Source: Candidatus Saccharimonas aalborgensis (GTDB taxonomy: Bacteria; Patescibacteriota; Saccharimonadia; Saccharimonadales; Saccharimonadaceae). From it: a stretch of 32,000 bases of DNA. Of the stretch, positions 9,701 through 27,406 are shown piece by piece. How positions within the stretch are numbered: the stretch's first letter is position 1; each line of letters begins with the position of its first letter. Location: positions 420,001 through 452,000 of the forward strand of contig NC_021219.1 of NCBI RefSeq assembly GCF_000392435.1, given 5' to 3'. A model generated the notes under the pieces. It saw only the letters and a program-made list of their open reading frames with translations. It ran no database searches and was not told where the DNA came from. A program made the translations under genes and the position numbers.

Positions 9701-10681
9701 GCTGCGTTTAACGACTTCAAGATACGCTATAGTTATCTTGGCAGCACCTCAACCACCGCTGGCGACTACGTGGACTGTGTCGACTATAACGCGCAGACGC
9801 TGGTTACGACCGGCTGGACGAAAGTAACGTGTTACATCCAAACTGATGCCAATGCCGCGACCAACCCTTACGTCTACTTCGTCGAAGCGACTTCGGGCGT
9901 ACGAACCTTCGCCGTTGACTCGTTTAGCATGACACTGGCGAGCATCACCACACCAAATGTTCAGGTCGGTGGCGGTATTAACGGTGGCCCAACCACACTC
10001 TTCACACTCGACAAAGGGGCAAGCGCACCAATCGCCAGCAACAACGATGCGCTGCTCGGCAGCATGTACTACGACACCACGCTTGGAAAGCTGCAGTGCT
10101 ACGAGGCTGATGGTTGGGGTGCCTGTGGTTCCAGCCCAGACAACATTGTCACTATCTCTCCAGAGTACACAAATGCGGTGCTCCACGGAACTGGTATCGG
10201 GACAATGACCAGCGACATCTGTTCAAGCACCCTCCAAATCAACGACGGGGTCAGTGGACGGCCCAGCGTCTGTGGGACAAATGAAACGTACAACTTCTAC
10301 AAATGGACTAGTCCTCAGGCCACAACTCAAACCTATAGTATCTATGTGACCTACCAGTTACCGAGTACCTTCAAGAGCTTCAACTCAGGTCAAGCCTCAC
10401 TCATGGCTCGTACCGATAACGGAAGCAGTGGCGGCTCATCAAGCGTTCAGTACCAAATATATCGAAATAACGGCAGCGGTCTTTTACCCTGTGGTTCAGC
10501 AGTCAGCGTTTCAAGTGGCACACAAACTTCATGGCTGACCGGTACGGCAACCGGTGCCGCCGACCCATCGACCTGTGGCTTTGCGCCTGGCAACAGTATC
10601 GTCTTCAAGATCGACATGACAACCAGTAAAAACGCGAACGCCTACGTTGGTAACCTCAACTTTGCCTTTAGCAACAAGTAG
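6782..10681 (+). CDS. Giant secreted surface protein/adhesin (1299 aa) with two tandem CBM-like jelly-roll modules
   Basis: The signal peptide is ..GVFVVSGIIGVAPQTAHA/AT. The N-terminal module reads INQQMNFQGRLLNAQGAVVPDGYYNIQFKIYQ...LKWTEDW...VQVKNGFMSVQLG. A Gly/Thr/Asn-rich beta-helix-like middle follows (GGAVNIIGGAP.., GGAVLIQGGNS..). Two repeats end in SIWTKVNCTF...TRTFYVDNLSVT and TGWTKVTCYI...VRTFAVDSFSMT, a pattern typical of carbohydrate-binding modules. All antisense and off-frame ORFs inside this gene look spurious. Confidence 0.9.
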   Translation: MPVTIFRALSRSLLGALFVGVFVVSGIIGVAPQTAHAATGINQQMNFQGRLLNAQGAVVPDGYYNIQFKIYQDGTGTTAGNPGGTLKWTEDWLNTAGNGVQVKNGFMSVQLGTINPFGSQVDWNQDTLWLSVNIGTTNTTCTPFSSCGGDGEMVPMKRLASVAYAMNAGSLGGLTASGFIQNTTVPQSANIAVQSASASSVGAMVQGASSQSVDLFRLQDSNGNVNAAFNNNGDQLTLGRISTTGTVTQGKLVFNDGTLDGYGLTIQSGTQTGNYTLTLPSLAGNATVCTSNSTATSACTNFIQNQTTLQAASNFHISGTGQADTAIITPAIRPTSDSTTALKVQNAAGTTDIMTIDSTNNRVGIALANGETASYDLSFGGGTDRIIGVNTNTSTGVGRSLTLQGGGGNGTNQAGGAVNIIGGAPTGSGVRGAVNLQTTVNGDVNIGNAGSAANTVTLTAGATNGIKLVSDKIMVGNATTTTTIQKTTQTTAGQAGQQLTIQGATSGTTGVGGAVLIQGGNSATGTTGGNLTLAGGTGTTSNGLVILNTSAFQTIANDANCFPSGTESTSSSGCTVAQTSVNNYASVIVGFTQDGQTATLPDPSIATAGRVVYVTASNLTKDFTLSVNGGGQGNQIAMRKNTTATMIWNGADWTAAGASSSTTLQAAYDNTLQSAGGAELVVSKTSATNGLTIRDSSTNPVNGTLLSVQTKSAAGLLQVNSNVTEYASNAGAETAGASATTFPASTWSSTGTATVTRQNVAGNYIATGQGSVSIAATAANSGAKNQLINSGGSAAALTANTTYNVSFTTRLTSGSSTFTDLNVQYSADGNTTLLTACGATSAVNTSIWTKVNCTFTTPASGITSGNAILIRQTASATRTFYVDNLSVTIAADYNFATDGSVTDAGNYATNWPTAGQGTVASSRIITDGNDASDSAQANVTAGAANAGIRNKLSSNPLSSTLYRVTVYGKLISGAAFNDFKIRYSYLGSTSTTAGDYVDCVDYNAQTLVTTGWTKVTCYIQTDANAATNPYVYFVEATSGVRTFAVDSFSMTLASITTPNVQVGGGINGGPTTLFTLDKGASAPIASNNDALLGSMYYDTTLGKLQCYEADGWGACGSSPDNIVTISPEYTNAVLHGTGIGTMTSDICSSTLQINDGVSGRPSVCGTNETYNFYKWTSPQATTQTYSIYVTYQLPSTFKSFNSGQASLMARTDNGSSGGSSSVQYQIYRNNGSGLLPCGSAVSVSSGTQTSWLTGTATGAADPSTCGFAPGNSIVFKIDMTTSKNANAYVGNLNFAFSNK

Positions 10682-16399: not shown

Positions 16400-17020
16400 A
16401 TGAATCCCCGTCCACATTCATACAAACCTTCTGCCACTCAGCACCGTGTGGTTGCTTTTAGTCCCCCGAAGCGTCCACCGTGGTATAGAGTGCGCATAGC
16501 AAAATTACTGCACCAACCACGACTTATCATTGGTGCCCTGCTTCTTCTTGGCATTGTCTTTATTATTAGCTGGTCTCAGAAAAAAAACGATCTTATTCAG
16601 CCTCACACCGAGACCACAGCGTCAACAAAAAAATCAAAAGATGAGGTTCCAAAGTTCATAACGGTACTACCAGGAGGTAAATCAATTGCCGACCTTGGCG
16701 GCTGGACACGCGTTAGTCCCGATTCTGCTGACCCAGTATTCGCCTACGTTGACAACCTGGATGGATCGCAGATTATTGTTAGTCAGCAACCACTTCCCGA
16801 CACATTTCAATCTGATCCCGAGGGACATATCGCTGAACTTGCAAAAAGTTACAATGCTTCAGACAAGATCAGCACTACAACCACGACAATCTATATTGGT
16901 GACTCAATAAAAGGACCGCAGTCGGTCATATGTACCAAATCAAAACTACTCATTCTCATCAAATCATCCGTCAAGCATTCGAACGATAGCTGGATTCGTT
17001 ACATTAATTCACTCAGCTAG
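16400..17020 (+). CDS. Bitopic membrane protein, unknown function
   Basis: ATG 16400 is preceded by aggaaaa (16382-16388). The track start at 16358 would overlap the previous gene. The N-terminus is basic and Pro-rich, followed by a TM helix (LIIGALLLLGIVFIISW) and a soluble domain of about 140 aa (..FAYVDNLDGSQIIVSQQPLP..). Confidence 0.75.
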   Translation: MNPRPHSYKPSATQHRVVAFSPPKRPPWYRVRIAKLLHQPRLIIGALLLLGIVFIISWSQKKNDLIQPHTETTASTKKSKDEVPKFITVLPGGKSIADLGGWTRVSPDSADPVFAYVDNLDGSQIIVSQQPLPDTFQSDPEGHIAELAKSYNASDKISTTTTTIYIGDSIKGPQSVICTKSKLLILIKSSVKHSNDSWIRYINSLS

Positions 17021-17039
17021 TATTACTGAACCACTAGCT
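17015..17039. terminator. Inverted repeat spanning the convergent stop codons (possible bidirectional terminator)
   Basis: AGCTAGT (17015-17021) and ACTAGCT (17033-17039) with an 11-nt loop. It overlaps TAG 17018-17020 on the plus strand and the minus-strand stop at 17023-17025. The stem is short and there is no U-tract. Confidence 0.25.
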
Positions 17040-17544
17040 CACCACGCATATACCCGCTCTTGCCGTTCTCGGCGCACGTTATGTCGATTGGCCACTTTCC
17101 CTTTGTTCTATTTGACTCAACTGACCAACTCCAGCTCACCACGCCATACTCATCTGCCATCTTTGGCACCAGGCCACTATCACGGCTTTTTTCACTATTG
17201 TCATACGTAACGATGATACTACAAGCAGCCTTTGGTTTGGTACGAATAGTAATTGAGGCATTTGACCCGGCTGAAAGTGGCGACGTCAATACGCTAATCG
17301 AAACACCAACCGGAGCGTTATCAGCAACTTTTGGCGGCGCTACTTCACGAGTCGGTGCTGGTTGGACCTTCGACACTTTCACTTCCGCGTGCTGCCCCGT
17401 CCACCACACATACCAGAGAGCTGCCGCGAGAGCGAGCAACAAGACAAGGAGCAGTGCAATTGTGGCTATCACAGCCGAGCGGCGGCGATGCTGTCGCCGG
17501 CGACCACGTGCTGTTGCCGGCGTGTGCTTCAATTCTTTGAGCAT
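17023..17544 (-). CDS. Bitopic membrane protein with a C-terminal Ig-like beta domain, unknown function
   Basis: 173-aa ORF. The N-terminus is Arg-rich (ARGRRRQHRRR), followed by a TM helix (VIATIALLLVLLLALAAALWYVWW). An extracellular domain follows (..VSISVLTSPLSAGSNASITIRTKPKAACSIIVTY..). It starts 5 nt after the upstream stop codon. The antisense ORF at 17060-17578 has no protein-like features. Confidence 0.8.
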   Translation of the reverse strand: MLKELKHTPATARGRRRQHRRRSAVIATIALLLVLLLALAAALWYVWWTGQHAEVKVSKVQPAPTREVAPPKVADNAPVGVSISVLTSPLSAGSNASITIRTKPKAACSIIVTYDNSEKSRDSGLVPKMADEYGVVSWSWSVESNRTKGKWPIDITCAENGKSGYMRGELVVQ

Positions 17545-17549
17545 GAGTG

Positions 17550-18113
17550 TTATTTATTTTTATCGTTGTACTCTTTGATGGTCTGCGAAACTTTACCATC
17601 GGCCTTGAGATTTTCAAAGAACAACACCTGGGTACGCTCAATCATCATCTCATCGTCTGGGCCGTGAAGCTCACCGCCCAACTTTATTAGTTCAACCCCA
17701 TTGCTATCACTGGTCTGCGGATTCTTTGCATCGCTCGTAGTTGACTTTGTTTGGAGATAAAAAACGCTCGTCAGTCGATAATACTCGTTGTTCGCTCGTT
17801 GCAACTTGCCAAAGTACACCTGTCCATTGCTAAGAAAAACAGCTTGATACTTATCTCCCTTTATAACATTACCGATAGTCGCTTGGTATACCATCCATCC
17901 GAGACAAGCCGCGATCAGTAGCGCGATGAGTCCACCGACAATCATCATAGTTCGACGCGAAAAGCGACGAAGCGGTTCCTGCCGCCGAAATGATACAGTC
18001 GAAGTGTGGGGTACTTCGCCGTGAGGCGGCTCTGCGACGGGTTCGGGTTCAGTGGACCGCAGTTGCTGTTGCGGTACGCCCGGACGAGTTGGGCGACTCG
18101 AAAATCTATCCAT
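17550..18113 (-). CDS. Bitopic membrane protein, unknown function
   Basis: 187-aa ORF. An AGGGAGAA Shine-Dalgarno box lies about 7 nt upstream of the ATG. A TM helix is present (MMIVGGLIALLIAACLGWMVY). A soluble domain follows (..YQAVFLSNGQVYFGKLQRANNEYYRLTSVFYLQ...LIKLGGELHGPDDEMMIERTQVLFFENL). Confidence 0.8.
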   Translation of the reverse strand: MDRFSSRPTRPGVPQQQLRSTEPEPVAEPPHGEVPHTSTVSFRRQEPLRRFSRRTMMIVGGLIALLIAACLGWMVYQATIGNVIKGDKYQAVFLSNGQVYFGKLQRANNEYYRLTSVFYLQTKSTTSDAKNPQTSDSNGVELIKLGGELHGPDDEMMIERTQVLFFENLKADGKVSQTIKEYNDKNK

Positions 18114-18142
18114 TATATTTCTCCCTTGTTATTCTTATGGTT

Positions 18143-18151
18143 ATCATATCA
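18143..18151 (-). promoter_or_regulatory. Extended -10 box upstream of the 17550-18113 gene
   Basis: The minus strand reads TGa-TATGAT (plus-strand coordinates 18151-18143). This is about 30 nt upstream of ATG 18113, and the AGGGAG Shine-Dalgarno box sits within that leader. Confidence 0.35.
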
Positions 18152-18185
18152 CAAGGCTCGTACCTCTGTCCAGAACACCAATCAC

Positions 18186-19376
18186 CTAGTGATAAGGATC
18201 GAGGGTAGCTTGCACTTTTTGTTCTTTGCCGTCTCGTATAATGCTAAGTTCAACCACGTCACCGACTGCCCGCCTCCCGACGAGAGAGGTGAGGCTATGT
18301 GTCTCATCAATCGATATGCCGTCAACTTTCGTGATAACATCTTTTTCTTTTAGGCCGGCCTTTTCAGCTGGACTACCGCCGATGATCGCCGACCCGCCGT
18401 GACTCGACAGTAAATAAGCACCGCGTTTTACCGACAATGTATAGGTCGACGCCACTTCATCAGTCAACGCAACATATCGCACGCCGAGATACGGCCGTTC
18501 AAACTTACCTGTTTTTATGACACTGGCTATCAGCCCCTTTACGTCGTCGATAGGGATAGCAAATCCAATATTTTCTGCTGAGCCGCTCGCTACTGCCGTG
18601 TTGATACCGATTACTTCACTATTCATGTTAACGAGCGGACCACCCGAATTACCAGAGTTAATTGCTGCGTCAGTTTGCAACAAATTTTGAAGCAATTCGC
18701 TCTGCGATCCACCTTCATTTCCGGCCTCAATACTCCGACCGTACCCAGACAAAATACCCGCCGTGACCGTATTTTGGAACTGGCCCAGTGCGTTACCTAT
18801 CGCCACTACTTTGTCACCCACCTGCAGACTCGACGAACTACCAAGTGTGGCAGGATGGAGTGATTTTCCTTTTGTGTTGTTGATCTTTAGGATGGCAATA
18901 TCGAGTGAATCGTCTGAACCTGTTCTTCCCACCACTGTGACATCATCGAGAACACTCCCATCTGATAGTGTAATCGACACCTTGGTGGCATCAGCGTCAA
19001 CCACATGACGGTTTGTCACAACATACCCATTATCGCTGACGATGATCCCCGTCCCTGCACTTTGCTGTGAATAGGCAATATCACGGCCAAAAAAATCATT
19101 CTGTGTTGCGCGGCTTGTCACGTTGATTGAGACCACGCTCTCGCCGACAGTCTTTGCAAGCGCACTGATATGTTGACCTTCTTCGACGGTGACTTGTCTG
19201 GTAAGCTGGCTGCTCGTGGCTGGTACAAATAAACGCGTCGCCACAATCCCGCCACCAAACCCGCAGAGCGTACTGACACCAATGATGACAATTGTATAGA
19301 GCAGTGGAAACCTGTGAGGATGACGATGACGTCTGGGACCAGCGGTTGATTGTGAAGAAAGTGGAGAGTTGTCCAT
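18186..19376 (-). CDS. htrA: HtrA/DegP-family (S1C) trypsin-like serine protease with a C-terminal PDZ domain, membrane-anchored
   Basis: The protease core contains GYVVTNRHVV (His), DIAILKI (Asp) and NSGNSGGPLVN (Ser). The PDZ segment reads GAYLL....SPAEKAGLKEKDVITKVDG. I chose ATG 19376 as the start: AGGTGA lies 7 nt upstream, and this ATG is just past the upstream TGA at 19384-19386. The track start at 19439 would overlap the upstream gene by 56 nt. Confidence 0.9.
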   Translation of the reverse strand: MDNSPLSSQSTAGPRRHRHPHRFPLLYTIVIIGVSTLCGFGGGIVATRLFVPATSSQLTRQVTVEEGQHISALAKTVGESVVSINVTSRATQNDFFGRDIAYSQQSAGTGIIVSDNGYVVTNRHVVDADATKVSITLSDGSVLDDVTVVGRTGSDDSLDIAILKINNTKGKSLHPATLGSSSSLQVGDKVVAIGNALGQFQNTVTAGILSGYGRSIEAGNEGGSQSELLQNLLQTDAAINSGNSGGPLVNMNSEVIGINTAVASGSAENIGFAIPIDDVKGLIASVIKTGKFERPYLGVRYVALTDEVASTYTLSVKRGAYLLSSHGGSAIIGGSPAEKAGLKEKDVITKVDGISIDETHSLTSLVGRRAVGDVVELSIIRDGKEQKVQATLDPYH

Positions 19377-19383
19377 CACATTA

Positions 19384-20520
19384 TCACCTACGCTTAGTGT
19401 CATGTTTTTTTGTATGCGTTTCTTCAATCGGCTCTTCATCTATGCTGGTCGGTATGTCATCAAGGAGGACTTTTCCGAGGGTATAGACATAGACAATGTC
19501 ATCGCGGACAATCAAGAATCTTGTTGCTTCATTTCCTGCTGGCGTCGCAACGATCGGTACTTTTAGTTCCTCCTCTAGATTGAGCATATCGTCGAAAGTC
19601 TGAACTGGTACCATGGTCTTACCTGCAATTGCAGCAGGCTGGCTCGCGCGGATGATGATACCATCGTGGTACCGATAGATTTTTTCGAGCTCTCGCTGGT
19701 AGGCTGATTTAAATATCTGTCTGCGCATGCCATACACTATCGCCATGAGACCAAACGCCGTTAGAATGCCCATGATAATTCGCTCATAATTTTTTGTCAT
19801 ATCTTGCCCTGACTTCATCGCCTGTGTGACAACTTGTTTCTTGTCTTCTTTTTCAAACTTGGTCGCAAATCGATAAATTGGCTGGTCCAGTGGCATCGTG
19901 ACCGTCGCGACTCTGATGTCGTCGAACCGTGTTCCATCAATCGAACCAGAAACGTGAACTGTAAAGGCAATTGTAACTTCCGAAGTAGCCGGCAGGGAAA
20001 GTGCTTGCTTCATTTGATTGACCATTTTTCGATAGTCTGCAAATGGTATCGATACCGAAGGGTCAAATGTAAGGTCAGAAGTTGTCACCACAGACGTGAC
20101 TGGCTTAATAAGCGAGTACTCTTTTGACCAGACGGTCGATATGTCCTTGCTGTCAGCTCCAAACATATACTGATAACGAACCGTTGCCGTCGCACCATAC
20201 AGTGTCGTCAATTCTACCGGCCGAGCGCTATGATACTTATAGTGAAGTGTTGCCTTTACCTCGTCAGTCAGGTCTGCGACATAGGCGGTGTTATTTGCAG
20301 CTGGTCCCTTATCATAAAAACTACTATTAAAATAGCTGACTCCCGTATCTACTGCCTGATTTACGGTGTAGTCGTAGCCGGTAGGGCTCACGGGAGTTGC
20401 GTCACTAGTATGCCCTAGGTCATAAAACAGCAACGCCGCACAAACAAGTAGCAACATCCCCAATAATACAAATCCAAATGACCGCTGAGAATGTTCTGGA
20501 TTTGCTATATCAAGTGCCAT
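19384..20520 (-). CDS. Two-TM membrane protein, DUF5305-like, the last gene of the SipW/TasA-type operon
   Basis: 378-aa ORF with AAGGGA 5 nt upstream of the ATG. There is an N-terminal TM helix (FGFVLLGMLLLVCAALLFY) and a large extracellular domain. A second TM helix (IIMGILTAFGLMAIVYGM) is followed by a cytoplasmic tail (..YRYHDGIIIRAS....VQTFDDMLNLEEELKVPIV....FLIVRDDIVYVYTLG). The topology and the position next to a SipW-like peptidase match my recollection of the DUF5305 family. No search was run. Confidence 0.6.
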   Translation of the reverse strand: MALDIANPEHSQRSFGFVLLGMLLLVCAALLFYDLGHTSDATPVSPTGYDYTVNQAVDTGVSYFNSSFYDKGPAANNTAYVADLTDEVKATLHYKYHSARPVELTTLYGATATVRYQYMFGADSKDISTVWSKEYSLIKPVTSVVTTSDLTFDPSVSIPFADYRKMVNQMKQALSLPATSEVTIAFTVHVSGSIDGTRFDDIRVATVTMPLDQPIYRFATKFEKEDKKQVVTQAMKSGQDMTKNYERIIMGILTAFGLMAIVYGMRRQIFKSAYQRELEKIYRYHDGIIIRASQPAAIAGKTMVPVQTFDDMLNLEEELKVPIVATPAGNEATRFLIVRDDIVYVYTLGKVLLDDIPTSIDEEPIEETHTKKHDTKRR

Positions 20521-20535
20521 GCCGTCCCTTTCTTT

Positions 20536-21699
20536 TTACTTTGCAAATTCCTTGAGCCAGACACTTGGGTATCCGACATAAGGTACCTGAGCACGTACAA
20601 TGCCGACGATCTGATCTGCCTGCACCGGCATGTCGGGGCTCGGGCTATTGTCGCCTTGCGTCAGAAAAACGCGTTTCCCTGATCCATCCGACGTGAAGTC
20701 GATCGCAATCACGCGGTGGGTCGTTGAGTGGCCCGTTGCTTCATATTGTACGATATCTCCTACCTGGACGTCCATCGGATTCGCCTTTTGCACAATCACA
20801 ACTGCTCCTCTCTCATAAACTGGTTTCATGCTATTACTCATGATTACTTGGGGCCGATAACTAAACGCTCCCGTCATGAAACTAATAAGCGCAATCATTA
20901 CTATGACGAAAGCAATGTTTTGAGTGTCACGCGCCCGTTGATGATGCCGGGTCGGCTCGGCTATATCATGTCGGTTTCGATCAATGGCGATATACACGCC
21001 AACCGCCAGTGCCGTCCAGGCAATACCCGTCATATACCAATCATACTTAGGGATGATAGGGGGCACAAACATCACGGCAATAACTCCCAGTCGATACGTA
21101 AGCTGCGAACCAAGTCCCGCCGTAAACGCGAGATACGTCAAAAGGACGCTGCTCGCAAATGCAGGTACGAGGCTAGACACGGTTATTTTTGTGAAATCCG
21201 CGATTGAGGCTGCATTATCAAACTGGGAAAAGCTGATTTGTTGAACGGAAAATAACGTGCCAATGATAACACCAAGCCACACAACGTTGCGTCTCCCCCC
21301 TAATAGCATAATTCCGTGTCGTACATACTCTAAGGCGGCAGCCGTAACACCAAATGTGGCAAGATTTATCACAACCGTCTGCCAGTTAACTGCTACTGCA
21401 TTATTTACATAGGTGACCGCTAAACCAGACAAGAAGTAGAGAACAAACCAAACCGATAATACCGAGCTAATGATGAGGCTTTTCTCTGCCTTATGGCGCA
21501 CTCGATCATGTTGTCCGCGGGTCACTTGACGAGTAATGAGTGCTGTGGCCGTAACCAATATCGGCTGCAACACACTGAGCGAAATCGATGCGCTAATTAT
21601 TCCGACGCGCTCGAGTATAACCGGAAGCAAAATAGCGATCAGCGCCAATAGGCACAAATACCATACTACAACCTTGATGGTCCGAGCCTTCCGAAACAT
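20536..21699 (-). CDS. Fusion protein: polytopic membrane domain (about 280 aa) plus a C-terminal ER/archaeal-type (SipW-like, S26B) signal peptidase I domain
   Basis: The C-terminal ~105 aa read IMSNSMKPVYERGAVVIVQK...GDIVQYE....THRVIAI......FLTQGDNSPSPD. These give the Ser box (SxSMxP), the His box (HRV) and the GDN..D box of SipW/Sec11-type peptidases. The N-terminal part has roughly eight or nine hydrophobic segments by eye. The ATG overlaps the upstream TAA by 1 nt (TAATG). Confidence 0.85.
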   Translation of the reverse strand: MFRKARTIKVVVWYLCLLALIAILLPVILERVGIISASISLSVLQPILVTATALITRQVTRGQHDRVRHKAEKSLIISSVLSVWFVLYFLSGLAVTYVNNAVAVNWQTVVINLATFGVTAAALEYVRHGIMLLGGRRNVVWLGVIIGTLFSVQQISFSQFDNAASIADFTKITVSSLVPAFASSVLLTYLAFTAGLGSQLTYRLGVIAVMFVPPIIPKYDWYMTGIAWTALAVGVYIAIDRNRHDIAEPTRHHQRARDTQNIAFVIVMIALISFMTGAFSYRPQVIMSNSMKPVYERGAVVIVQKANPMDVQVGDIVQYEATGHSTTHRVIAIDFTSDGSGKRVFLTQGDNSPSPDMPVQADQIVGIVRAQVPYVGYPSVWLKEFAK

Positions 21700-22511
21700 T
21701 AGGCTTTACCCTTCACCGCTGCTCCGGTCGTTGTCCATGTTGTCATTGTAGAAGTGACTGAGGTCGAAAATGAGTATTGTGACCCGTTAGCGATTGGTAT
21801 GGCCGCCCCAGTATACGTCAGTACCGTTGATGTGCAGGTGTACGTTACTCCAGCCGGCACAGTCGATGTGCAAGTCTTTGTCGTTGGAATTGTGACCCGC
21901 CAACCACTGATCGGCTGACCCGAATTATTCGTGATTACTACCGACAGTGGAAACGCACCACCGCTTTTTGGCGACGCGGTGGCGGCCACAGTAAGCCCAG
22001 GAATTGCCACATACGCAGTTGAGTACGTCGCAGAGATATTAACGTTTTGGGGCGTGTAGTATGCGACAGTACTTGTAAATCTAATCGAGTTAGAGGTGTT
22101 ATTTATGGTGCTTGATGCACCGGCAGCGATAGTGACTGTGCGAGTAATCGTTACGACATGAGTCGTATTATTGATAGTACACGCCACGGTAGTCGGACAA
22201 GTGATCGCTGTAGTATCGTTTGGCACAGTAAATTGTACTTGCCAAGCAGTGATTGAGGTCACACCATTATTTTTTATGACAAAGGGGTTAAGCTTGTAGG
22301 TATATACGCCGGCTGCAAACGTTGCTGTCTTGGTATAGGTAACGGTTGTATAATTATTTGAAATGTAAGCGACACTCGATACAGCGGTATCAACCGAAAG
22401 CTGTTGGCTGAACAAAGCATAGGTTGTGCTCACTACCAATAGAGGCATCGCGAGGAGGAGCCCCATTTGCCGAATTGCCGCTCTGTATTTTTCTCGACGT
22501 CGCTTCCCCAC
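21699..22511 (-). CDS. Larger secreted subunit with the same SipW-type N-terminus and two Thr/Val-rich beta modules (possible minor or tip subunit)
   Basis: GTG 22511 is preceded by GGAA about 10 nt upstream. An alternative ATG lies 15 codons in. The N-terminus is KRRREKYRAAIRQMGLLLAMPLLVVSTTYALFSQQLSV. Its YA-x-F-S-x-x-L motif is shared with the two smaller subunits (YAAFSQNLTI, YASFATTLTV). Two modules contain ..ITAWQVQFTVP.. and ..ISGWRVTIP.. motifs. Confidence 0.8.
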   Translation of the reverse strand: MGKRRREKYRAAIRQMGLLLAMPLLVVSTTYALFSQQLSVDTAVSSVAYISNNYTTVTYTKTATFAAGVYTYKLNPFVIKNNGVTSITAWQVQFTVPNDTTAITCPTTVACTINNTTHVVTITRTVTIAAGASSTINNTSNSIRFTSTVAYYTPQNVNISATYSTAYVAIPGLTVAATASPKSGGAFPLSVVITNNSGQPISGWRVTIPTTKTCTSTVPAGVTYTCTSTVLTYTGAAIPIANGSQYSFSTSVTSTMTTWTTTGAAVKGKA

Positions 22512-22525
22512 CGCTACTGATTCCG

Positions 22526-23023
22526 TTAATTTTGAACGTAATTAAAGGTAATCGTCGCTGCTTTGTTGGCGCCGCTCGGGTTTGTCGAAGCACTAGCAGC
22601 CCATGTCACACTGATGGTAGCGGTTGTGGAAGCGTTGGGAGCCAAGGTATCGTTGACCGCTACACCACTGATTGCATACGTCAGGTAGGTTGGCGCGCCG
22701 CTGTTGATGGCGGTCAGGTTGGTGATAGTGCTCAACTTTGCGTTGATGTTGCCCTTGTTTTTGATGACGACTTGGTATGACGACGTTGCGCCAGGGTACG
22801 CTAGGTCGACATTAAACGTCGCTGAGGTAGCCGTAAATGATGGTGTACTGGCATGATCGGTGGCACCGACCTGTCCGGTGGGCGTGATACTGATGATTTC
22901 TACTGCCCAGTTACCAGTAGCAGTACCGGTACCATTGACAGTGAGTGTTGTCGCAAACGATGCGTACGCGATCGACGCCGCCGAGACGAGCACGATTGCG
23001 AGTGATATAATTTTGTTTCTCAA
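22526..23023 (-). CDS. TasA-like / SipW-dependent-signal secreted subunit, paralogue 2
   Basis: I chose TTG 23023 as the start. It gives (M)RNKIISLAIVLVSAASIAYASF.., colinear with paralogue 1 (MRNKIVAAALVLVAVASVAYAAF..), and has the same AAAGGAA Shine-Dalgarno box 9 nt upstream. Shared blocks are GNW.VEIISIT, TSATFNVDLAYPGAT, KNKGNINAK and VTW. The track start at 23098 adds 25 non-homologous residues that run through a promoter. Confidence 0.85.
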   Translation of the reverse strand: MRNKIISLAIVLVSAASIAYASFATTLTVNGTGTATGNWAVEIISITPTGQVGATDHASTPSFTATSATFNVDLAYPGATSSYQVVIKNKGNINAKLSTITNLTAINSGAPTYLTYAISGVAVNDTLAPNASTTATISVTWAASASTNPSGANKAATITFNYVQN

Positions 23024-23066
23024 CGAGATGTTTCCTTTTGTATATTGTGTCCTATACCTATCTAGA

Positions 23067-23095
23067 ATTATACTCCTCTCCTCTCCTTGAGACAA
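23067..23095 (-). promoter_or_regulatory. Sigma70-type promoter for the paralogue-2 gene, internal to the operon
   Basis: The minus strand reads TTGTCT (plus 23095-23090), a 17-nt spacer, then a consensus TATAAT (plus 23072-23067). This sits 43 nt upstream of the TTG start at 23023. Confidence 0.5.
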
Positions 23096-23134
23096 CAAAC
23101 AAACCGTGTCCTCTCATCAGTCGAGAGGACACGG
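23095..23134 (-). terminator. Intrinsic terminator or attenuator directly after the first TasA-like gene
   Basis: Perfect 12-bp stem: CCGTGTCCTCTC (23104-23115) and GAGAGGACACGG (23123-23134) with a 7-nt loop. On the minus strand the hairpin is followed by TTTGTTTGT (23103-23095). It lies 22 nt after the TAA of the 23157-23660 gene. Confidence 0.65.
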
Positions 23135-23156
23135 GAAACGTAGCTATACGTTGTTT

Positions 23157-23660
23157 TTAGGTGTTCTGAGCAAAGCCGTAGGTGATTGTTGCGTTCTTTG
23201 TCACGGTCGTTACATTAGTAGTCGCGGTGCCAAGCCAGGTGACGGTAACTGTAGCAGTCACCGTGCTACCGGGGGTCAATGGATCATCAACCGCTGGACC
23301 GGTAACGGTAAACTTAACATCGGCAGGATCTGCTGCATTTGTTGCGACCAAATCAGGAATGGAGCTCACCTTTGCGTTGATATTGCCCTTGTTTTTCATG
23401 ACGACATCATACGTAGCCGTCGCGCCAGGGTAGGCCAAGTCAACGTTGAAAGTAGCTGATGTTGCATTAAATGAAGGGGCAACGTTATTGTGATCACTTT
23501 CGCCTGTACCCGAGGTCTTTGTAATACTTATGATCTCGACGCTCCAGTTACCAGATGCGTTTCCCGTACCATTGATCGTAAGGTTTTGTGAAAATGCTGC
23601 ATACGCCACGGACGCAACGGCGACGAGGACGAGTGCGGCAGCGACAATTTTGTTTCTCAT
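23157..23660 (-). CDS. TasA-like / SipW-dependent-signal secreted subunit, paralogue 1 (likely the major subunit)
   Basis: 167-aa ORF with AAAGGAA 9-10 nt upstream of the ATG. The signal-like N-terminus is MRNKIVAAALVLVAVASVAYA/AFSQNLTINGTG. A beta-rich body follows (..TSATFNVDLAYPGATATYDVVMKNKGNINAKV..). It is the first gene of the operon and is followed by a strong hairpin. The antisense ORFs at 23106-23459 and 23182-23433 were rejected. Confidence 0.9.
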   Translation of the reverse strand: MRNKIVAAALVLVAVASVAYAAFSQNLTINGTGNASGNWSVEIISITKTSGTGESDHNNVAPSFNATSATFNVDLAYPGATATYDVVMKNKGNINAKVSSIPDLVATNAADPADVKFTVTGPAVDDPLTPGSTVTATVTVTWLGTATTNVTTVTKNATITYGFAQNT

Positions 23661-23691
23661 ACAGAATGGTTCCTTTTATGTTTAGTTGTGT

Positions 23692-23721
23692 ATACTAGTA
23701 GCATACATTATCTTTGCATAA
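23692..23721 (-). promoter_or_regulatory. Candidate promoter of the TasA-like operon
   Basis: The minus strand reads TTATGC (plus 23721-23716), an 18-nt spacer, then TAGTAT (plus 23697-23692). This is 31 nt upstream of ATG 23660. Alternative hexamers exist in the same AT-rich stretch. Confidence 0.3.
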
Positions 23722-23767
23722 CCAACAAGTGACCAGCGTGATACCCGTCGCGATACAGCTAGTTTCC

Positions 23768-24571
23768 TTAGCTGCGGCGTTCCCGAACGAGCTGGAGACA
23801 CAAGGTAATCAGCACGGGCAGGACGATACTCAGCGTAATGATTGTTCCGGGGTATCTCCCGTTGAAGCCATCAGGTGATACGTGCTTGAGTAGTATGCCG
23901 CCAAACGCCCATACAAATACAGTGAGGTACGCCGCATCGCGATTTCGTAGTGCCGTGATGATGCCGATTGTCGCTGCAACCAAAAGCATCGCAACCATCC
24001 ACGTACTTGCTTTGATACCAAATCCATTCCAATTGACGCTCACGAGAAATGTAGTTATATTTGCAACAGTAGCGACGGTTATCCACCCAAAATAGACACT
24101 GAAGGGGAGTTTTGTCTGTACGTATTCGACACCACTAACCCGTTGACTCCTTAGCAGGTCAGCAATCTTGATAAGAGTGGCTAGCAACGCAATCATCAAT
24201 AACACACTGAGCCACAGTACCTTATACTGCCACGCAAGTATCCACATACCGTTAAGAGCGAGGTTGATGGTGAGTAGTTTTGTCACATCGGTGAGCGCAT
24301 CGATGGTCAGTGTCGACTTTTTTGACCGACCGATACCAAAGACATACAGGATAAATCCAGCAACGAGCAGGTATATCACTCCCCAGATTGCAAACGTCAC
24401 TCCTGCTGGCGCAAACAAATTAGGGAAACTGTCAGAAACCTGTGCGGTATTCACTCCGCCGAGCACCGTAGTGCTACCCGCTAGACCATTGAGTACCATC
24501 GTAACAGCAAATGTTGCCGCCAGTCCCCAGCTCCATTTTTTCTCAACACGTTTTTTCTTGTTCCAGATCAT
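23768..24571 (-). CDS. Polytopic integral membrane protein, possibly TspO/MBR-related
   Basis: 267-aa ORF with AAGGAG 5 nt upstream. It has about seven hydrophobic segments. The N-terminal motif NGLAGSTTVLGGVNTAQVSDSFPNLFAPAGVTFAIWGVIYLL resembles the long TspO-like family of Gram-positive bacteria as I remember it. This is unverified. Confidence 0.45.
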   Translation of the reverse strand: MIWNKKKRVEKKWSWGLAATFAVTMVLNGLAGSTTVLGGVNTAQVSDSFPNLFAPAGVTFAIWGVIYLLVAGFILYVFGIGRSKKSTLTIDALTDVTKLLTINLALNGMWILAWQYKVLWLSVLLMIALLATLIKIADLLRSQRVSGVEYVQTKLPFSVYFGWITVATVANITTFLVSVNWNGFGIKASTWMVAMLLVAATIGIITALRNRDAAYLTVFVWAFGGILLKHVSPDGFNGRYPGTIITLSIVLPVLITLCLQLVRERRS

Positions 24572-24596
24572 ATAAACTCCTTATGGCTATAGAATA

Positions 24597-25079
24597 TCAC
24601 AGTGCGAGAAGTGTTTCGATATCACCGACAAGTGACGCCGGTGATGTTGTCGGCGCAAAGCGTCGTATTTTCTCGCCGTCGCGGGCCACCAAAAACTTGG
24701 TGAAATTCCACTTTATTTCTTTGCCAAGTGTTGCGTTACTGTGATCTTTTAGGTAGCGAAACACCGGGTGAGTGTGGGGACCATTCACCATAATTTTTTC
24801 ACTAAGCAAGAATGTTACCCCAAAATCTCGTTTACACACTGACACGAGCGTGTCATTTGTCTCGGGCTCTTGAGAGGCAAATTGATCACACGGAAAACCG
24901 ATCACTACTAATCCCTGGTCCTTGTATCGTTGGTAAAGCGCTTCAAGTTCCTCAAATTGCGGTGCGAGACCACACTTTGTCGCCGTATTCACAAGCAATA
25001 GTACCTTGCTCCTAAAACCAGCGAGTAATGTTGTCGCACCAACAGTATCTCGAAACGTTAGAGAATAGATGTCGCTCAC
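24597..25079 (-). CDS. gpx: Glutathione peroxidase family protein (Cys-type)
   Basis: Signature blocks are LLLVNTATKCGLAPQ (peroxidatic Cys), VVIGFPCDQFASQEP and KWNFTKFLVARDG. The 160-aa length is typical of the family. Confidence 0.9.
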   Translation of the reverse strand: MSDIYSLTFRDTVGATTLLAGFRSKVLLLVNTATKCGLAPQFEELEALYQRYKDQGLVVIGFPCDQFASQEPETNDTLVSVCKRDFGVTFLLSEKIMVNGPHTHPVFRYLKDHSNATLGKEIKWNFTKFLVARDGEKIRRFAPTTSPASLVGDIETLLAL

Positions 25080-25080
25080 G

Positions 25081-25584
25081 TTACTCGCTCACCTCAACCT
25101 CAAAGTAGTCTTGAGGTAAAAATCCAAAAGCCTTAGCAACTAGCATATGCGGAAATATACTAAGCAAGTGATTATATTCAGAGACAGCAGCATTATAGAG
25201 TAACCGTTCGCCTTGAATGCCGTCTTCTATATTGACAAGCTCGTCGATAATTTTTTGAAAGTTCTGCTGCGCCCTCATAGCTGGATATGCTTCAATACAT
25301 TGCACAATATTTTTTTGCAAAGCAGACTCCGCCTTGCCGGTTTCTTGTACATCACCGTTTCTCGCTGCTGCGATACTTTGTTGAACATTCAGCTCAAAAT
25401 CACTCGACGCTTGAGTAGCAGAGATAAGACGCGGTACTACCGCATGTCGCTTTGCTAGGACCGTCATTATGTTTGCCCATAATTCTCCGACGATAACGTA
25501 GCGTTTACGTAGTTGGTTATATACTACAATTATTGCAATCACTTCCAGCACCGTAAAGGCAATAAACAAGTAGACAACTACCAT
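25081..25584 (-). CDS. lemA: LemA family membrane protein
   Basis: Starting at ATG 25584 gives MVVVYLFIAFTVLEVIAIIVVYNQLRK.. (an N-terminal TM helix followed by the LemA helical domain). The C-terminal signature is YNAAVSEYNHLLSIFPHMLVAKAFGF. The track start at 25656 would overlap the upstream gene by 79 nt, whereas the chosen start overlaps it by 7 nt (ATGGTAG). Confidence 0.85.
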   Translation of the reverse strand: MVVVYLFIAFTVLEVIAIIVVYNQLRKRYVIVGELWANIMTVLAKRHAVVPRLISATQASSDFELNVQQSIAAARNGDVQETGKAESALQKNIVQCIEAYPAMRAQQNFQKIIDELVNIEDGIQGERLLYNAAVSEYNHLLSIFPHMLVAKAFGFLPQDYFEVEVSE

Positions 25585-26684
25585 AATTTCCTCGCGACCA
25601 TAGTGTCTCGCACCTTCAGCCAGCGCGCTACCAACGTGTACATAATTGCTATCCATACTGGGCCCAGTAGCGCACCGACAGATGCCTTATCACCCAAAAA
25701 TACGAGAGCGAGGAGCAACATCGCAACGATATATATCGCTGCACCGGCACCGAGGCTCCGCCGAACGGTAAACAAGTGCGGCACAGCCTGAAGTGCAGCT
25801 TCCAAGGGTATATTGTAATGACTGAAGCTTGGTACCGAATCTGCAAATAGTTTTCGGGCGCGCTTCACGACGATAGAACGGCACATTTCAATACTCTCTA
25901 AGAGAAGCTGTGTATCACTTGCGGAGTGCAAAGAGTGTATGTCTGTCATTACATACATTCTGCCGTTACTTACAAATACATCGCTCTGTGACATTCGTTT
26001 TACAAAATGCTGAGCAACATCGCTGGTGAAAAATTTTGCTGCTTTCGACAACTCAAGGTCTGCATATATATCTAGCACCTGATCACTTGCCCTATCTAGT
26101 ACAACTCGTTTGTGTCTTGGTAGTAGTAGTTTTCTCCCGATATGCCGTTCGATACTATAGGCATGTGAATCAACAAAAAAGTTTGGGAGTGTTGAATCGA
26201 CCTTTACCTCGATATATAGTGTACTTCCCAAAATATTCACCCTTGCCTCTGTCTGGTCATTAAACAATATGGCATACTGGCTTTGTGAATACAAACGAAG
26301 CGCTTCTTCAAGTTGCGATGCACGATGTGTCTTACGCAAACCTACAACAAAATAAACTACGCTTCTGTATACCAGGTGCAATACGATCCAGACAAGCGTA
26401 AACTCTAACAAGAAGGATGCTATGACTTCTAGTACATTATGCGTACCAAGTAGCATAGTGTGCTGATAAAAAGCACTCCCCGGAAATAGCCAGAACGTTC
26501 CATTTTGTATCTCGTAACGTATGACATCAAACGACCACTGTTCGGGAAAGCCAGCAAATGGAATATATGCCATTGCAAACGAAATCGCGACGGCAAAAAT
26601 AGCCGTGAGTGTTCCTAGCAGTCTCAACTTTCTCCTATGGCGAATAATCCCCCCGAATATCGCTTCATGGTCAATATTATTCAT
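25578..26684 (-). CDS. Four-TM membrane protein with a central soluble domain, unknown function, LemA-linked
   Basis: 368-aa ORF overlapping the upstream gene by 8 nt (ATGAATAA). It has two N-terminal hydrophobic helices (LGTLTAIFAVAISFAMAYIPF and VIASFLLEFTLVWIVLHLVY) and two C-terminal ones (AAIYIVAMLLLALVFLG and LLGPVWIAIMYTLVARW). Confidence 0.8.
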   Translation of the reverse strand: MNNIDHEAIFGGIIRHRRKLRLLGTLTAIFAVAISFAMAYIPFAGFPEQWSFDVIRYEIQNGTFWLFPGSAFYQHTMLLGTHNVLEVIASFLLEFTLVWIVLHLVYRSVVYFVVGLRKTHRASQLEEALRLYSQSQYAILFNDQTEARVNILGSTLYIEVKVDSTLPNFFVDSHAYSIERHIGRKLLLPRHKRVVLDRASDQVLDIYADLELSKAAKFFTSDVAQHFVKRMSQSDVFVSNGRMYVMTDIHSLHSASDTQLLLESIEMCRSIVVKRARKLFADSVPSFSHYNIPLEAALQAVPHLFTVRRSLGAGAAIYIVAMLLLALVFLGDKASVGALLGPVWIAIMYTLVARWLKVRDTMVARKLW

Positions 26685-27339
26685 CTTTGATCCTTAATGA
26701 GTCGATTATTCGCTTCACAACTTCATCTTCACGTGACTCGACCTGTGAGTAAATGGTTAGCTCATATTGAGCAGTGTTCGTTGCAATCATCACAATCGTT
26801 TCTCTTCTGCTGAACATCTCCCCGATATACCGCCGTTCATCCTTTAGGGTCGAGGTATACCTAAGTTGTATAGCCTGGTACTTACCGACAGACACATCTC
26901 TCTTTTCCTTTGTAGTGAGTGTGTAGTCCGTATTCTTGTGCAATCTATCCTGCAAATCTTCTTTCTCTGCAAAATACTCCGCTGGCTGTTTACTATACGA
27001 ACGTATGCTAGTCTCAGAAAGAGATATCATAGGATCGGGTTGCGTTGCCTTTGGATTAAGCGTGCTATTCCGAAGCGTCCGCGGCAGACTCATCGTAGTA
27101 GATACCATACCCTCTCCGTAATCTTTCCTGCTGGCTACAACGTAGCCATTAGGATATTCAAACGTTAGTCGCCCATCGCTACTTGTAAACGTACGAAAAT
27201 CTGGCTGATTGATATATGAATCTATACCGTTCACCACACCCTGTACAAAAAGACTTAGGCCAACTGCAATACTGGCTGCTACCACGACAAGTACACTCAT
27301 TGAGAGAATGTTCAGCCTGAAGTGGTGTGTTTTATTCAT
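26677..27339 (-). CDS. Bitopic membrane protein, unknown function (first gene of the LemA operon)
   Basis: 220-aa ORF with a TM helix (ILSMSVLVVVAASIAVGLSLFV) and a soluble domain of about 180 aa. The ATG lies 8 nt downstream of a TGgTATAAT box. Confidence 0.8.
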   Translation of the reverse strand: MNKTHHFRLNILSMSVLVVVAASIAVGLSLFVQGVVNGIDSYINQPDFRTFTSSDGRLTFEYPNGYVVASRKDYGEGMVSTTMSLPRTLRNSTLNPKATQPDPMISLSETSIRSYSKQPAEYFAEKEDLQDRLHKNTDYTLTTKEKRDVSVGKYQAIQLRYTSTLKDERRYIGEMFSRRETIVMIATNTAQYELTIYSQVESREDEVVKRIIDSLRIKDE

Positions 27340-27347
27340 TGGGTATC

Positions 27348-27356
27348 ATTATACCA
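27348..27356 (-). promoter_or_regulatory. Extended -10 promoter, leaderless configuration, for the 26677-27339 gene
   Basis: The minus strand reads TGg-TATAAT (plus 27356-27348), then 8 nt (gataccca), then ATG 27339. No Shine-Dalgarno sequence is present. Confidence 0.5.
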
Positions 27357-27406
27357 AGTCAAACGGAGTATGCCCATTGTGCTTGTGTCACATGACAATT
27401 CACTCA

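Follow-up and report, generated by a model that had tools for sequence, protein, structure and literature searches.

AbpX, the donor-strand fibril protein of Pyrodictium abyssi, was solved by cryo-EM (bioRxiv 10.64898/2026.01.04.697558; PDB 9sj2, with 9rhp as a crystal entry), and the structure confirmed cleavage of the signal peptide at TYA (PDB 9sj2). A trio of an AbpX-like pilin, a polytopic signal peptidase (SPase) and a DUF5305 protein was reported from archaea, Bacillota and Chloroflexota (bioRxiv 10.64898/2026.01.04.697558). The Tafi bundling pili (archaeal Tat-fimbriae) employ two to three small pilins of 150-200 aa (TafA/TafE), a dedicated S26 signal peptidase (TafD) and a DUF5305 protein (TafG). 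Donor-strand assembly of Natrinema TafE was solved by cryo-EM; the peptidase is needed for pilin processing, and deletion of TafD blocks TafA processing and fibre formation (PMC11821415, PMC12337348). The literature on Tafi and AbpX loci names the DUF5305 protein TafG or describes it as accessory to the SPase (PMC11821415, PMC12337348, bioRxiv 10.64898/2026.01.04.697558). In the TapA-SipW-TasA system of Bacillus subtilis and the SipW-BsaA/B/C system of Clostridium perfringens, the matrix subunits are beta-sandwich proteins that assemble through exchange of an N-terminal donor strand, and they have an ER-type SPase I of their own. TapA is the accessory secreted protein that gives the first strand in the TasA system, and a membrane-tethered 'exchange then cleave' model was proposed for BsaA and SipW. 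In the chaperone-usher type 1 pilin FimA, too, a donor strand completes the Ig-like fold.

The locus studied here lies in a 32-kb stretch of Candidatus Saccharimonas DNA (the window), and we read it, with a probability of about 0.68, as an AbpX-type (TasA-superfamily) extracellular fibre system. Its predicted content of small secreted beta-sandwich subunits, a dedicated polytopic SPase I and a DUF5305 partner supports a TasA-superfamily fibre system. An earlier note on this DNA had described a SipW/TasA-type fibre operon; the gene content and kind of system were correctly recognised, and the TasA/SipW family assignment gave way to AbpX. The features are given by position in the window:

18186-19376, minus strand: HtrA/DegP-family serine protease, trypsin-like domain and PDZ
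19384-20520, minus strand: protein E, 378 aa, DUF5305
20536-21699, minus strand: protein D, 387 aa, nine transmembrane (TM) helices and signal peptidase I
21699-22511, minus strand: protein C, 270 aa, GTG start
22526-23023, minus strand: subunit B, 165 aa counted from TTG 23023
23067-23095, minus strand: promoter-like site just 5' of subunit B, TTGTCT-17-TATAAT, 10/12, a consensus match only
23104-23134, minus strand: intrinsic-terminator-like hairpin immediately 3' of subunit A, 8 GC pairs in a stem of 13 bp, followed by the tail TTTGTTTGTT
23157-23660, minus strand: subunit A, 167 aa, ORF
23707-23735, minus strand: weak candidate sigma-70-like promoter 5' of subunit A, TGGTCA-17-GATAAT, 9/12, a consensus match only

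The five genes at 19384-23660 are co-directional and closely spaced on the minus strand, with all ORFs at the coordinates that the earlier note had given. The gaps between B and C, C and D, D and E, and E and HtrA are 14, -1, 15 and 7 nt, the C-D overlap being TAATG; the HtrA gene follows in the same orientation as previously described, and its 7-nt spacing holds if it starts with the ATG at 19376. Subunit B appears in the ORF listing as 22526-23098. The TTG at 23023 is most likely its true start, given an AAGGA ribosome-binding site and a match to the 'MRNKIISL' of its homologues. An AAGGA ribosome-binding site also precedes the ATG of subunit A at 23660. The hairpin after subunit A was the top-ranked terminator-like site within 17000-24700 (RNA fold of -27.3 kcal/mol, z = -3.75), and none of 200 shuffles folded equally well; the site ahead of subunit B was the best promoter-like site of the region.

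Subunits A and B are 57% identical, and both are beta-rich, secreted proteins of about 165 aa. Subunit A has a Sec signal peptide with predicted cleavage between AYA and AFSQNLTINGTG, followed by a beta-sandwich core, and subunit B has predicted cleavage between AYA and SFATTLTVNGTG. The blocks TSATFNVDLAYPGAT and KNKGNINAK, already pointed out for this pair, are found in both. All named members among the 230 homologues of subunit A are from Saccharibacteria. The conserved type is that of subunit B, since most loci with one copy have a subunit that matches B best; subunit A is the additional, A-type paralogue and putatively the abundant fibre subunit. A common N-terminal signature had been claimed for the three secreted proteins, and when all six frames of the 32-kb window were scanned with [AGST]Y[AS][ASTL][FWL][SAT][QTSE].L, A, B and C were indeed the only matches. 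A, B and C were identified as exported proteins with a common conserved segment across an AxA-type signal-peptidase site, (A/T)YA before the cut and x(F)(S/A)Qx L(T/S)(I/V) after it. Mature residues 1-12 are the most conserved stretch of the subunit family (entropy 1.52 bits vs. 1.85-2.51 in later segments).

Profile comparisons identified archaeal AbpX, rather than Bacillus TasA, as the demonstrable and closest characterised relative of the subunits, at a sequence identity of only about 20%. The AbpX fibril (9sj2_C) was the best PDB sequence match with both subunit profiles (E 0.039 and 0.015). It was the sole PDB match of profile A1, and with profile A2 the only other fibre-protein match was the self-complemented AbpX crystal entry 9rhp_A; the remaining matches were weak and at chance level, e.g., T-cell receptor chains. 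These searches gave no match to Tafi pilins and none to TasA at E<10. Alignment of 82 diverse homologues with four AbpX sequences (hhalign) gave Prob 95.2% and E 2.8e-8 over 131 columns, and the mature parts alone gave Prob 81.5% and E 1.1e-5 in register, with residue 3 of one mature protein set against residue 3 of the other; Prob did not exceed 0.4% in the controls, which were reversed or column-shuffled. The N-terminus of AbpX, TYA followed by QWSETLSLSATISTG, aligns with the corresponding segment of subunit A. Both proteins have the (T/A)YA cleavage context, a probable amphipathic donor strand in which position +2 is aromatic or hydrophobic and position +6 is L, the core motif PG...N.G..PA and, as in the subunit family at large, a C-terminal QN. 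AbpX differs in the acidic Ca2+ ligand at mature position 4, which is never present in the subunit family (Q or T instead), and in its acidity (D+E about 15% vs. 6.0% in subunit A and 3.7% in subunit B).

The subunits, in which the earlier note had seen a resemblance to TasA/camelysin, fall outside the TasA/camelysin and TIGR0408x families, and neither A nor B reached PF12389 (TasA/camelysin), NF046066 (TasA), TIGR04088 (SipW-cognate) or other NCBIfam models, and NF046067 also lacks a match among the Saccharimonas proteins. AbpX itself scores 18.6 bits with the TasA Pfam model, below threshold, and the same model is likewise only sub-threshold in 15 of the 82 family members. The AF2 model of subunit A is all-beta (pLDDT 77, core 80-94). 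Foldseek placed two donor-strand pilins among the best PDB matches of the subunit model, FimA at ranks 1-2 (E 3.6e-3, TM 0.39) and AbpA at rank 7 (E 0.043, TM 0.34), all of them weak (TM of 0.40 or less), and no TasA was present in the top 50. The expected similarity to TasA, camelysin or AbpA folds was thus seen weakly for AbpA and FimA and not for TasA. The modelled resemblance to FimA is one of fold class only, and the chaperone, usher and outer membrane of the FimA system are all absent here. Inspection of the A and B alignments, which permits a weak inference, found no conserved BsaA-like Asn-Glu-Lys isopeptide triad.

In protein D, nine predicted TM helices occupy residues ~10-275, and residues 276-387 make up an extracytoplasmic signal peptidase I domain. 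As had been anticipated, the peptidase is of the ER/archaeal type (TIGR02228 87.5 bits vs. a cutoff of 51.85), with the motifs SNSMKP, THRV and GDNSPSPD; S288, S290, M291, P293, H328, R329, G349, D350, N351 and D356 are invariant in 32 homologues, and S290, H328 and D350 are the putative catalytic residues. Its AF2 model (pLDDT 78) has nine TM helices, and the top Foldseek match is human SEC11C (7p2q_A; E 4e-4, prob 1.0). Protein D is 39% identical to the abpX-adjacent SPase across the catalytic domain and aligned with it over 260 columns (hhalign, Prob 98.7%, E 2.9e-16), the two being of equal size and architecture. These comparisons identify protein D as a Ser-His-Asp signal peptidase I on a nine-helix membrane domain, homologous to the peptidase beside abpX. 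The likeness to SipW suggested before did not extend to the family, as protein D scored 50 bits with the SipW equivalog model, whose cutoff is 190. SipW itself is small, and two TM helices are typical for prokaryotic SPase I; TafD has four TM helices and an N-terminal catalytic domain, whereas that of protein D is C-terminal. The Saccharimonas signal peptides also differ from those of Tafi in being Sec-type rather than Tat, and RRxFLK is absent.

Protein E is a DUF5305 protein (PF17231 89.6 bits vs. a cutoff of 29, E 2.5e-25), as the earlier note had it, and DUF5305 is a recurrent partner of such peptidases. Hydropathy predicts TM segments (~11-38 and ~247-266) on either side of an extracytoplasmic domain, with the C-terminal domain in the cytoplasm. 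By analogy, protein E is a putative TafG-like accessory subunit of the SPase; descriptions of the Bacillus tapA-sipW-tasA operon include no gene for DUF5305.

Like the present locus, AbpX loci have DUF5305 and a variable partner that is a minor or tip protein; the partner here, protein C, differs in having tandem CBM2-like modules. Protein C begins with a basic n-region and a hydrophobic helix, its cleavage is predicted between TYA and LFSQQLSVD, and two CBM2-like beta-sandwich modules with 4 Cys come next. A 16-residue cleavage/strand segment is all that it shares with A and B, and the N-terminal signature is kept in 34 proteins of the C slot. Protein C scores 20.4 bits with CBM_2, just short of the gathering threshold (24 bits). 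Nine other C-slot proteins were tested, of which seven score 28-86 bits, and five of these seven have two modules. Since protein C is below the CBM_2 threshold and has no obvious planar aromatic strip, glycan binding is speculative.

Fibre formation would proceed by donor-strand complementation, as inferred by analogy with the known systems. A, B and C would be exported by Sec and remain tethered by their own signal peptides until a D-E complex cuts after YA, giving a new N-terminus whose first ~12 residues would form an amphipathic beta-strand. The freed strand may enter the open beta-sandwich groove of an adjacent subunit, and head-to-tail repeats would join B and/or A non-covalently into a thin fibre, with A probably overproduced from its own promoter-like site and the terminator-like hairpin ahead of B. 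Protein C, a donor strand with two CBM2-like modules in place of a pilin body, would occupy the first subunit's groove in the way that TapA serves TasA, which would place it at one fibre end. Protein C is thereby a putative nucleator and either a tip adhesin, possibly glycan-binding, or a cell-wall anchor, and HtrA may remove subunits that are misfolded or left unassembled. The system as a whole likely serves in adhesion or in the formation of a matrix, toward host cells, flocs or polysaccharides.

Rather than a tipped adhesive pilus for attachment to a host, the same fibre chemistry may produce a secreted lattice or matrix in which cells are embedded within activated-sludge flocs, such as a hydrogel like that of AbpX or a biofilm scaffold like that of TasA; we regard this as possible but less likely. 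AbpX and TasA both form matrices, the wider subunit family is acidic like AbpX (median pI 4.27, D+E 12%), and A, B and C contain neither LPXTG nor SLH anchor motifs. Against this, subunit B is near neutral (pI 6.5), the AbpX Ca2+-ligand residue is missing, and the presence of a dedicated partner that combines a donor strand with tandem CBM2-like modules suggests that one end binds specifically.

It is improbable that A, B and C are ordinary monomeric, Ig-like surface or secreted proteins served by a specialised peptidase, with no fibre. Generic Ig-like domains were the commonest family matches of the 82 homologues (choice-of-anchor D 51/82, TIGR01451 (DUF11) 48/82, DUF7507 40/82, CARDB 31/82), which individually score higher with these than with TasA-family models, and part of the AbpX profile signal could stem from a generic beta-sandwich that has the common PG...N.G motif. 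The weak Foldseek similarity to pilins also fits monomers. However, the Ig-like matches were all sub-threshold, and AbpX itself is labelled 'CARDB domain-containing' in UniRef. The in-register AbpX alignment from the mature N-terminus, conservation that peaks in the post-cleavage strand and not in the sandwich, and the restriction of what C has in common with A and B to that strand argue for the fibre reading, as does an SPase and DUF5305 module linked so far to fibre loci.

A bona fide Bacillus-type tapA-sipW-tasA operon acquired from actinobacterial hosts of Saccharibacteria is very improbable: the gene logic is similar (subunit, accessory secreted protein, ER-type SPase), some relatives have weak PF12389, TIGR04090 and TIGR04088 traces and PF12389 homologues were reported from Patescibacteria (Wang et al. 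2022), but the family models, PDB searches and peptidase architecture above, the origin data below and a GC of 0.48-0.50 throughout the locus, similar to its surroundings, all speak against it.

The cassette is conserved as a unit, with synteny far above chance and in agreement with the earlier expectation. The order subunit(s), C, peptidase, DUF5305 is kept in 43 of 45 independent loci, mostly from Saccharibacteria with about ten from gut Bacillota; one exception ends after C and in the other E precedes D (L020 and L045, respectively). The closest non-CPR loci recovered were those of gut Bacillota (subunit 38-48% identity, D and E 25-37%), and no actinobacterial locus was among those recovered. 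Horizontal acquisition from Actinobacteria, raised previously, found no support, as there is no sign of recent transfer and the cassette is widespread in Saccharibacteria with all genes diverging together. The cassette, most likely fibre-building, is of a kind not yet studied in Saccharibacteria, which are tiny epibiotic bacteria. CPR bacteria are outside the hosts named in the AbpX study (bioRxiv 10.64898/2026.01.04.697558). The novelty claimed for the cassette is weakened by the 2025-2026 papers, which describe the same module of SPase, DUF5305 and pilin from the Tafi and AbpX loci of archaea. The HtrA gene is probably co-transcribed with the cassette in this genome and is not a conserved member of it. 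Among Saccharibacteria, HtrA adjoins the cassette only in the window and in one other locus (L001), and four gut Bacilli loci have an HtrA homologue just upstream of the subunit gene.

The cassette is composed of five minus-strand open reading frames that span 19384-23660 of the window and are followed by a protease gene:

23157-23660, minus strand: ORF of 167 aa, A, a small secreted subunit
23067-23134, minus strand: terminator-like hairpin and promoter-like site between the subunit paralogues A and B
22526-23023, minus strand: ORF of 165 aa, B, the second small secreted subunit
21699-22511, minus strand: ORF of 270 aa, C, a larger secreted partner with CBM2-like modules
20536-21699, minus strand: ORF of 387 aa, D, a polytopic signal peptidase I
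19384-20520, minus strand: ORF of 378 aa, E, a DUF5305 protein
18186-19376, minus strand: HtrA/DegP protease, 7 nt downstream of the DUF5305 gene E

The gaps between B/C, C/D and D/E are 14, -1 and 15 nt, respectively, and the HtrA gene, which starts at 19376, lies 7 nt past E, as an earlier note on this DNA had reported. A 190-aa ORF for B was judged too long at its 5' end because the TTG at 23023, with AAGGA upstream, fits the N-terminus of the homologues. A 13-bp terminator-like hairpin, the strongest in the region (-27.3 kcal/mol, z -3.75), lies in the 133-nt spacer between A and B and is directly followed by the top promoter-like site of the region (TTGTCT-17-TATAAT), which suggests that A may be expressed differentially from B-C-D-E. 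Scanning the window for Rfam families and tRNAs gave no match, indicating that no RNA element is involved.

A, B and C are exported proteins with a common cleavage/strand segment. The N-terminal signature that the earlier note had ascribed to the three secreted proteins was present at exactly three sites in a six-frame translation of the 32-kb window, those of A, B and C. A and B were 57% identical and had 230 close homologues, the named ones all from Saccharibacteria. Neither protein matched a curated family above threshold. The same note had likened the subunits to TasA and camelysin, but A and B matched neither PF12389 (Peptidase_M73) nor NF046066 (TasA) at E<=1, and A, B and C gave no match to TIGR04088 (SipW-dependent signal peptide). 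Among 82 relatives, chosen as a diverse set of subunit homologues, PF12389 was detected below threshold in 15 (best E 6.2e-4), NF046066 was matched by two, and TIGR04088 was detected in two (E 0.025 at best). The AlphaFold2 monomer of the subunit was an all-beta sandwich (pLDDT 77, core 80-94). Foldseek returned only weak PDB matches for this model, FimA being first (E 3.6e-3, TM 0.39) and the bundling pilin AbpA seventh (a weak E of 0.043); TasA was not among the top 50.

The subunit family is large and is named by no curated model at present: when 1.8 billion cluster representatives were searched with a profile, 5296 relatives were recovered at E<=1e-3. Many of these are 300-870 aa long and have the subunit domain N-terminally. 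Such proteins, found among entries P0271-P0390, carry long C-terminal extensions behind the subunit-like domain and may represent forms of the pilin that act as adhesins or anchors. In the 82 relatives, conservation was highest in the N-terminal segment after the cleavage site. The sixth residue after predicted cleavage (+6) was L in 79 of them; +2, which is F in A, B and C, was L (50) or F (25); and +4 was Q (50) or T (18) and in none D or E. The mature proteins have pI values of 4.5 (A) and 6.5 (B), with a D+E content at full length of 6.0 and 3.7%, respectively, and for the wider family the median pI is 4.27 and D+E amounts to 12%. The C-terminal ends read YGFAQNT in A, FNYVQN in B and AAVKGKA in C.

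The best sequence match in the PDB with two different profiles was AbpX of Pyrodictium abyssi (E 0.039 and 0.015), a fibril protein that polymerises by N-terminal donor-strand complementation as seen by cryo-EM (bioRxiv 2026.01.04.697558). AbpX was the only PDB match of the first profile (A1). With the second, the crystal entry of self-complemented AbpX was matched too, and there were a few further matches, weak and no better than chance, for example to T-cell receptor chains. Aligned by hhalign with AbpX, represented by the full-length protein and three relatives (four close Pyrodictium sequences rather than a broad profile), the subunit family gave a probability of 95.2% (E 2.8e-8, 131 columns). 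After removal of the signal peptides the probability was 81.5% (E 1.1e-5), with mature residue 3 paired with mature residue 3, and reversed or column-shuffled AbpX alignments reached at most 0.4%. A metagenome scan for AbpX relatives found none. These comparisons showed the subunits to be homologues, at the level of sequence, of a donor-strand fibril protein of solved structure. AbpX itself scored 18.6 bits, below threshold, against the TasA Pfam model, which is the level of the 15 relatives with such a score, so both families are similarly far from TasA proper.

The cleavage and donor-strand regions of A (SVAYA↓AFSQNLTINGTGNAS) and C (STTYA↓LFSQQLSVD) resemble that of AbpX (GLTYA↓QWSETLSLSATISTG), and a predicted amphipathic N-terminal strand directly follows the signal peptidase I site in A, B and C as it does in AbpX; the F at +2 in all three corresponds to the aromatic residue conserved at mature position 2 of AbpX-like pilins. 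The PG...N.G..PA core and the C-terminal QN also are common to both families. In contrast, A and B lack the acidic +4 residue, the pI of about 4 and the D+E content of about 15% that go with Ca2+-dependent assembly in AbpX-like pilins. The fact that +4 is never acidic, together with the lower acidity of A and B, argues against Ca2+-triggered assembly.

Peptidase D is a dedicated, polytopic enzyme of the ER type, and its partner is the DUF5305 protein E. In agreement with the ER/archaeal type proposed earlier, D scored 87.5 bits against TIGR02228 (sigpep_I_arch; cutoff 51.85); its SNSMKP, THRV and GDNSPSPD motifs were unchanged, and S290, H328, D350 and D356 invariant, in 32 homologues. The likeness to SipW did not extend to the family model, as D scored only 50 bits against the Bacillus SipW equivalog NF046067 (cutoff 190). 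The AlphaFold2 model of D (pLDDT 78) showed nine transmembrane helices and, after them, a beta-rich domain, and human SEC11C was its top Foldseek match in the PDB (E 4e-4, probability 1.0); for the membrane domain Foldseek gave no convincing PDB match. From the charge distribution, we read the catalytic domain as probably extracellular. E was likewise assigned as the note had proposed, with 89.6 bits against PF17231 (DUF5305; threshold 29) over profile positions 1-217. Hydropathy placed hydrophobic segments at residues 11-38 and 247-266 around a domain of about 200 residues, a two-helix topology, with one domain outside the membrane and one in the cytoplasm, that agrees with the description of DUF5305 proteins in the AbpX literature.

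Loci of the AbpX type, reported from archaea, Bacillota and Chloroflexota, contain a ten-helix signal peptidase I, a DUF5305 accessory protein, minor subunits and variable tip proteins (bioRxiv 2026.01.04.697558). The cassette likewise has a neighboring polytopic peptidase (about 10 transmembrane helices in AbpX loci) and a DUF5305 protein. Beside abpX lies a gene for a 380-aa peptidase built like D, to which this enzyme is 39% identical in the catalytic domain; their alignment (probability 98.7%, E 2.9e-16) covered 260 columns and extended into the membrane domain. By the features tested, namely subunit homology, N-terminal strand, polytopic peptidase and DUF5305 partner, the locus belongs with AbpX-type loci, without the Ca2+ signature.

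C had only a 16-residue stretch around the cleavage site in common with A and B, and the remainder consisted of two modules with the pattern N.G...I..W.V.F. It scored 20.4 bits against CBM2 (PF00553), below the 24-bit gathering threshold. Among proteins encoded at the place of C in related loci, seven of nine tested passed the CBM_2 model with scores of 28-86 bits, and in five of the seven it matched two modules; the N-terminal signature was kept in 34 such proteins. In a gut 'Lactobacillales' MAG (L035, 7550-8710, plus strand), the two CBM2 modules of the protein at this place were separated by a perfect (GGDNT)n array of about 26 units, which looks like a long flexible spacer and would fit a distal binding domain.

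A genome scan recovered 45 loci with related cassettes. Saccharibacteria account for about 35, and about 10 come from MAGs of gut Bacillota that bear the labels Bacilli, Clostridia or 'Tenericutes.' Synteny in relatives, whose absence the earlier note had named as a refutation, was strict, with the order subunit(s), C-position protein, D and E kept in 43 of the 45; one exception (L020) ends after C and the other (L045) has E before D. Identities dropped in parallel across the cassette genes. About one in three loci from Saccharibacteria had two subunit genes, and the subunit of one-copy loci was usually nearer B, suggesting that A is the added paralogue. In three gut Bacilli loci (L034, L035 and L038, ~9760-10510), the second subunit gene lies between the peptidase and DUF5305 genes rather than upstream, which indicates separate origins or relocations of the paralogues in the two lineages. 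Four gut Bacilli loci (L032, L034, L035 and L038, ~4850-6830) have an HtrA homologue directly upstream of the gene for the subunit. In the other loci from Saccharibacteria, HtrA was not found at the position after E, adjacency there being confined to this species. HtrA was rejected as a core component because it adjoins the cassette in only five of the 45 loci. Its linkage in two unrelated lineages possibly reflects a functional tie such as subunit quality control. The earlier suggestion of acquisition from Actinobacteria found no support: no actinobacterial relatives were recovered among the 45 loci, and GC content was flat over the locus, so recent transfer from that source was discarded.

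Several known fibre systems were compared with the cassette. The archaeal Tat-fimbriae (Tafi) have loci with a peptidase, a DUF5305 protein and a small-pilin module; their donor-strand structure was determined by cryo-EM, and deletion of the peptidase stops pilin processing and fibre formation (PMC11821415, PMC12337348). A DUF5305 protein, the family of TafG in Tafi, is present here as E. Tafi pilins have a twin-arginine signal peptide, whereas A and B begin with MRNK or (L)RNK and lack RR, and C has KRRRE yet no RRxFLK-like consensus as read from its sequence. TafD-type peptidases have four transmembrane helices and an N-terminal catalytic domain (PMC11821415), unlike D, with nine helices and a C-terminal catalytic domain. 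A Tat-dependent Tafi system was dismissed because A, B and C have no Tat motif. Canonical TasA/SipW membership was rejected on the family models (PF12389, NF046066, TIGR04088 and NF046067). Isopeptide locking as in BsaA was set aside as unsupported; inspection of the alignments, a weak basis for inference, revealed no conserved N-E-K triad. The view that the system is independent of both sortase and type IV machinery held: A, B and C had no LPXTG with transmembrane segment and basic tail, and no sortase was found among the scanned cassette genes, which excludes sortase-dependent pili; type IV pili were excluded because their class III signal (G↓F/M-T-L-x-E) is absent. The N-termini are of the classical Sec/AxA kind and the adjacent peptidase is of family S26, not A24, the family of prepilin peptidases.

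By analogy, the system would function like the TasA, BsaA, AbpX and Tafi fibres. D-E would cleave A, B and C after YA, and mature residues ~1-12 would enter the sandwich of the next subunit. The hairpin would allow A to be made in excess over the downstream genes. C could give the first strand and sit at one end of the fibre as a tip adhesin or anchor, and HtrA could serve in quality control. For BsaA/SipW, a membrane-tethered sequence of 'strand exchange, then cleavage' has been proposed, and it fits the locus.

Attachment of Saccharibacteria and other CPR epibionts to their hosts is now ascribed almost wholly to type IV pili, along with a small number of adhesins. A bolder reading, to which we give a probability of about one in five, is that the cassette forms the fibre by which environmental Saccharibacteria attach to a host or recognise prey, with C at its distal end and D-E as the assembly platform. 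The fibre would be a Sec-dependent pilus independent of sortase and type IV machinery, and the tandem CBM2 modules of C would bind cell-wall glycan of the host bacterium. D and DUF5305 would hold a membrane-tethered subunit and be more than an enzyme for processing; they would couple removal of the signal peptide to transfer of the new N-terminal strand, so that the fibre grows from its base. If true, D and DUF5305 would constitute a minimal two-protein functional analogue of an usher or pilin sortase, and this machine would be at work also in gut Bacillota with small genomes and in a family of >5000 sequence clusters without a Pfam or NCBIfam model.

The locus is a candidate for a second, genetically compact surface-fibre system, conserved in many environmental Saccharibacteria and present also in gut Bacillota. 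With it, the set of AbpX/Tafi/TasA pilin, dedicated signal peptidase and DUF5305 protein, a module recognised only recently, reaches into the CPR. Our literature search found no paper tying such a fibre to Saccharibacteria, although one survey lists PF12389 homologues in Patescibacteria. The locus deserves experiment but can no longer count as a new structural class. The system is small and directly testable, with five genes, a predicted cleavage site and predicted catalytic residues, and the CBM2-like partner C provides a concrete binding hypothesis.

Elsewhere in the window, two large plus-strand ORFs may encode giant surface proteins: a 1885-aa protein (10726-16383) with Kelch beta-propeller repeats and a glycine-rich domain, where GC content rises to 0.60 at 12-13 kb, and an adjacent 1299-aa protein (6782-10681) with no Pfam match. 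The window was 90.8% identical in nucleotide sequence over 8.9 kb to a Ca. S. aalborgensis MAG (L001), and the alignment to L001 breaks at 25025-27399. A LemA gene (25081-25656) and a gene for a 368-aa membrane protein (25578-26684) were missing at the matching place in L001, indicating that these close relatives differ by an indel or rearrangement.
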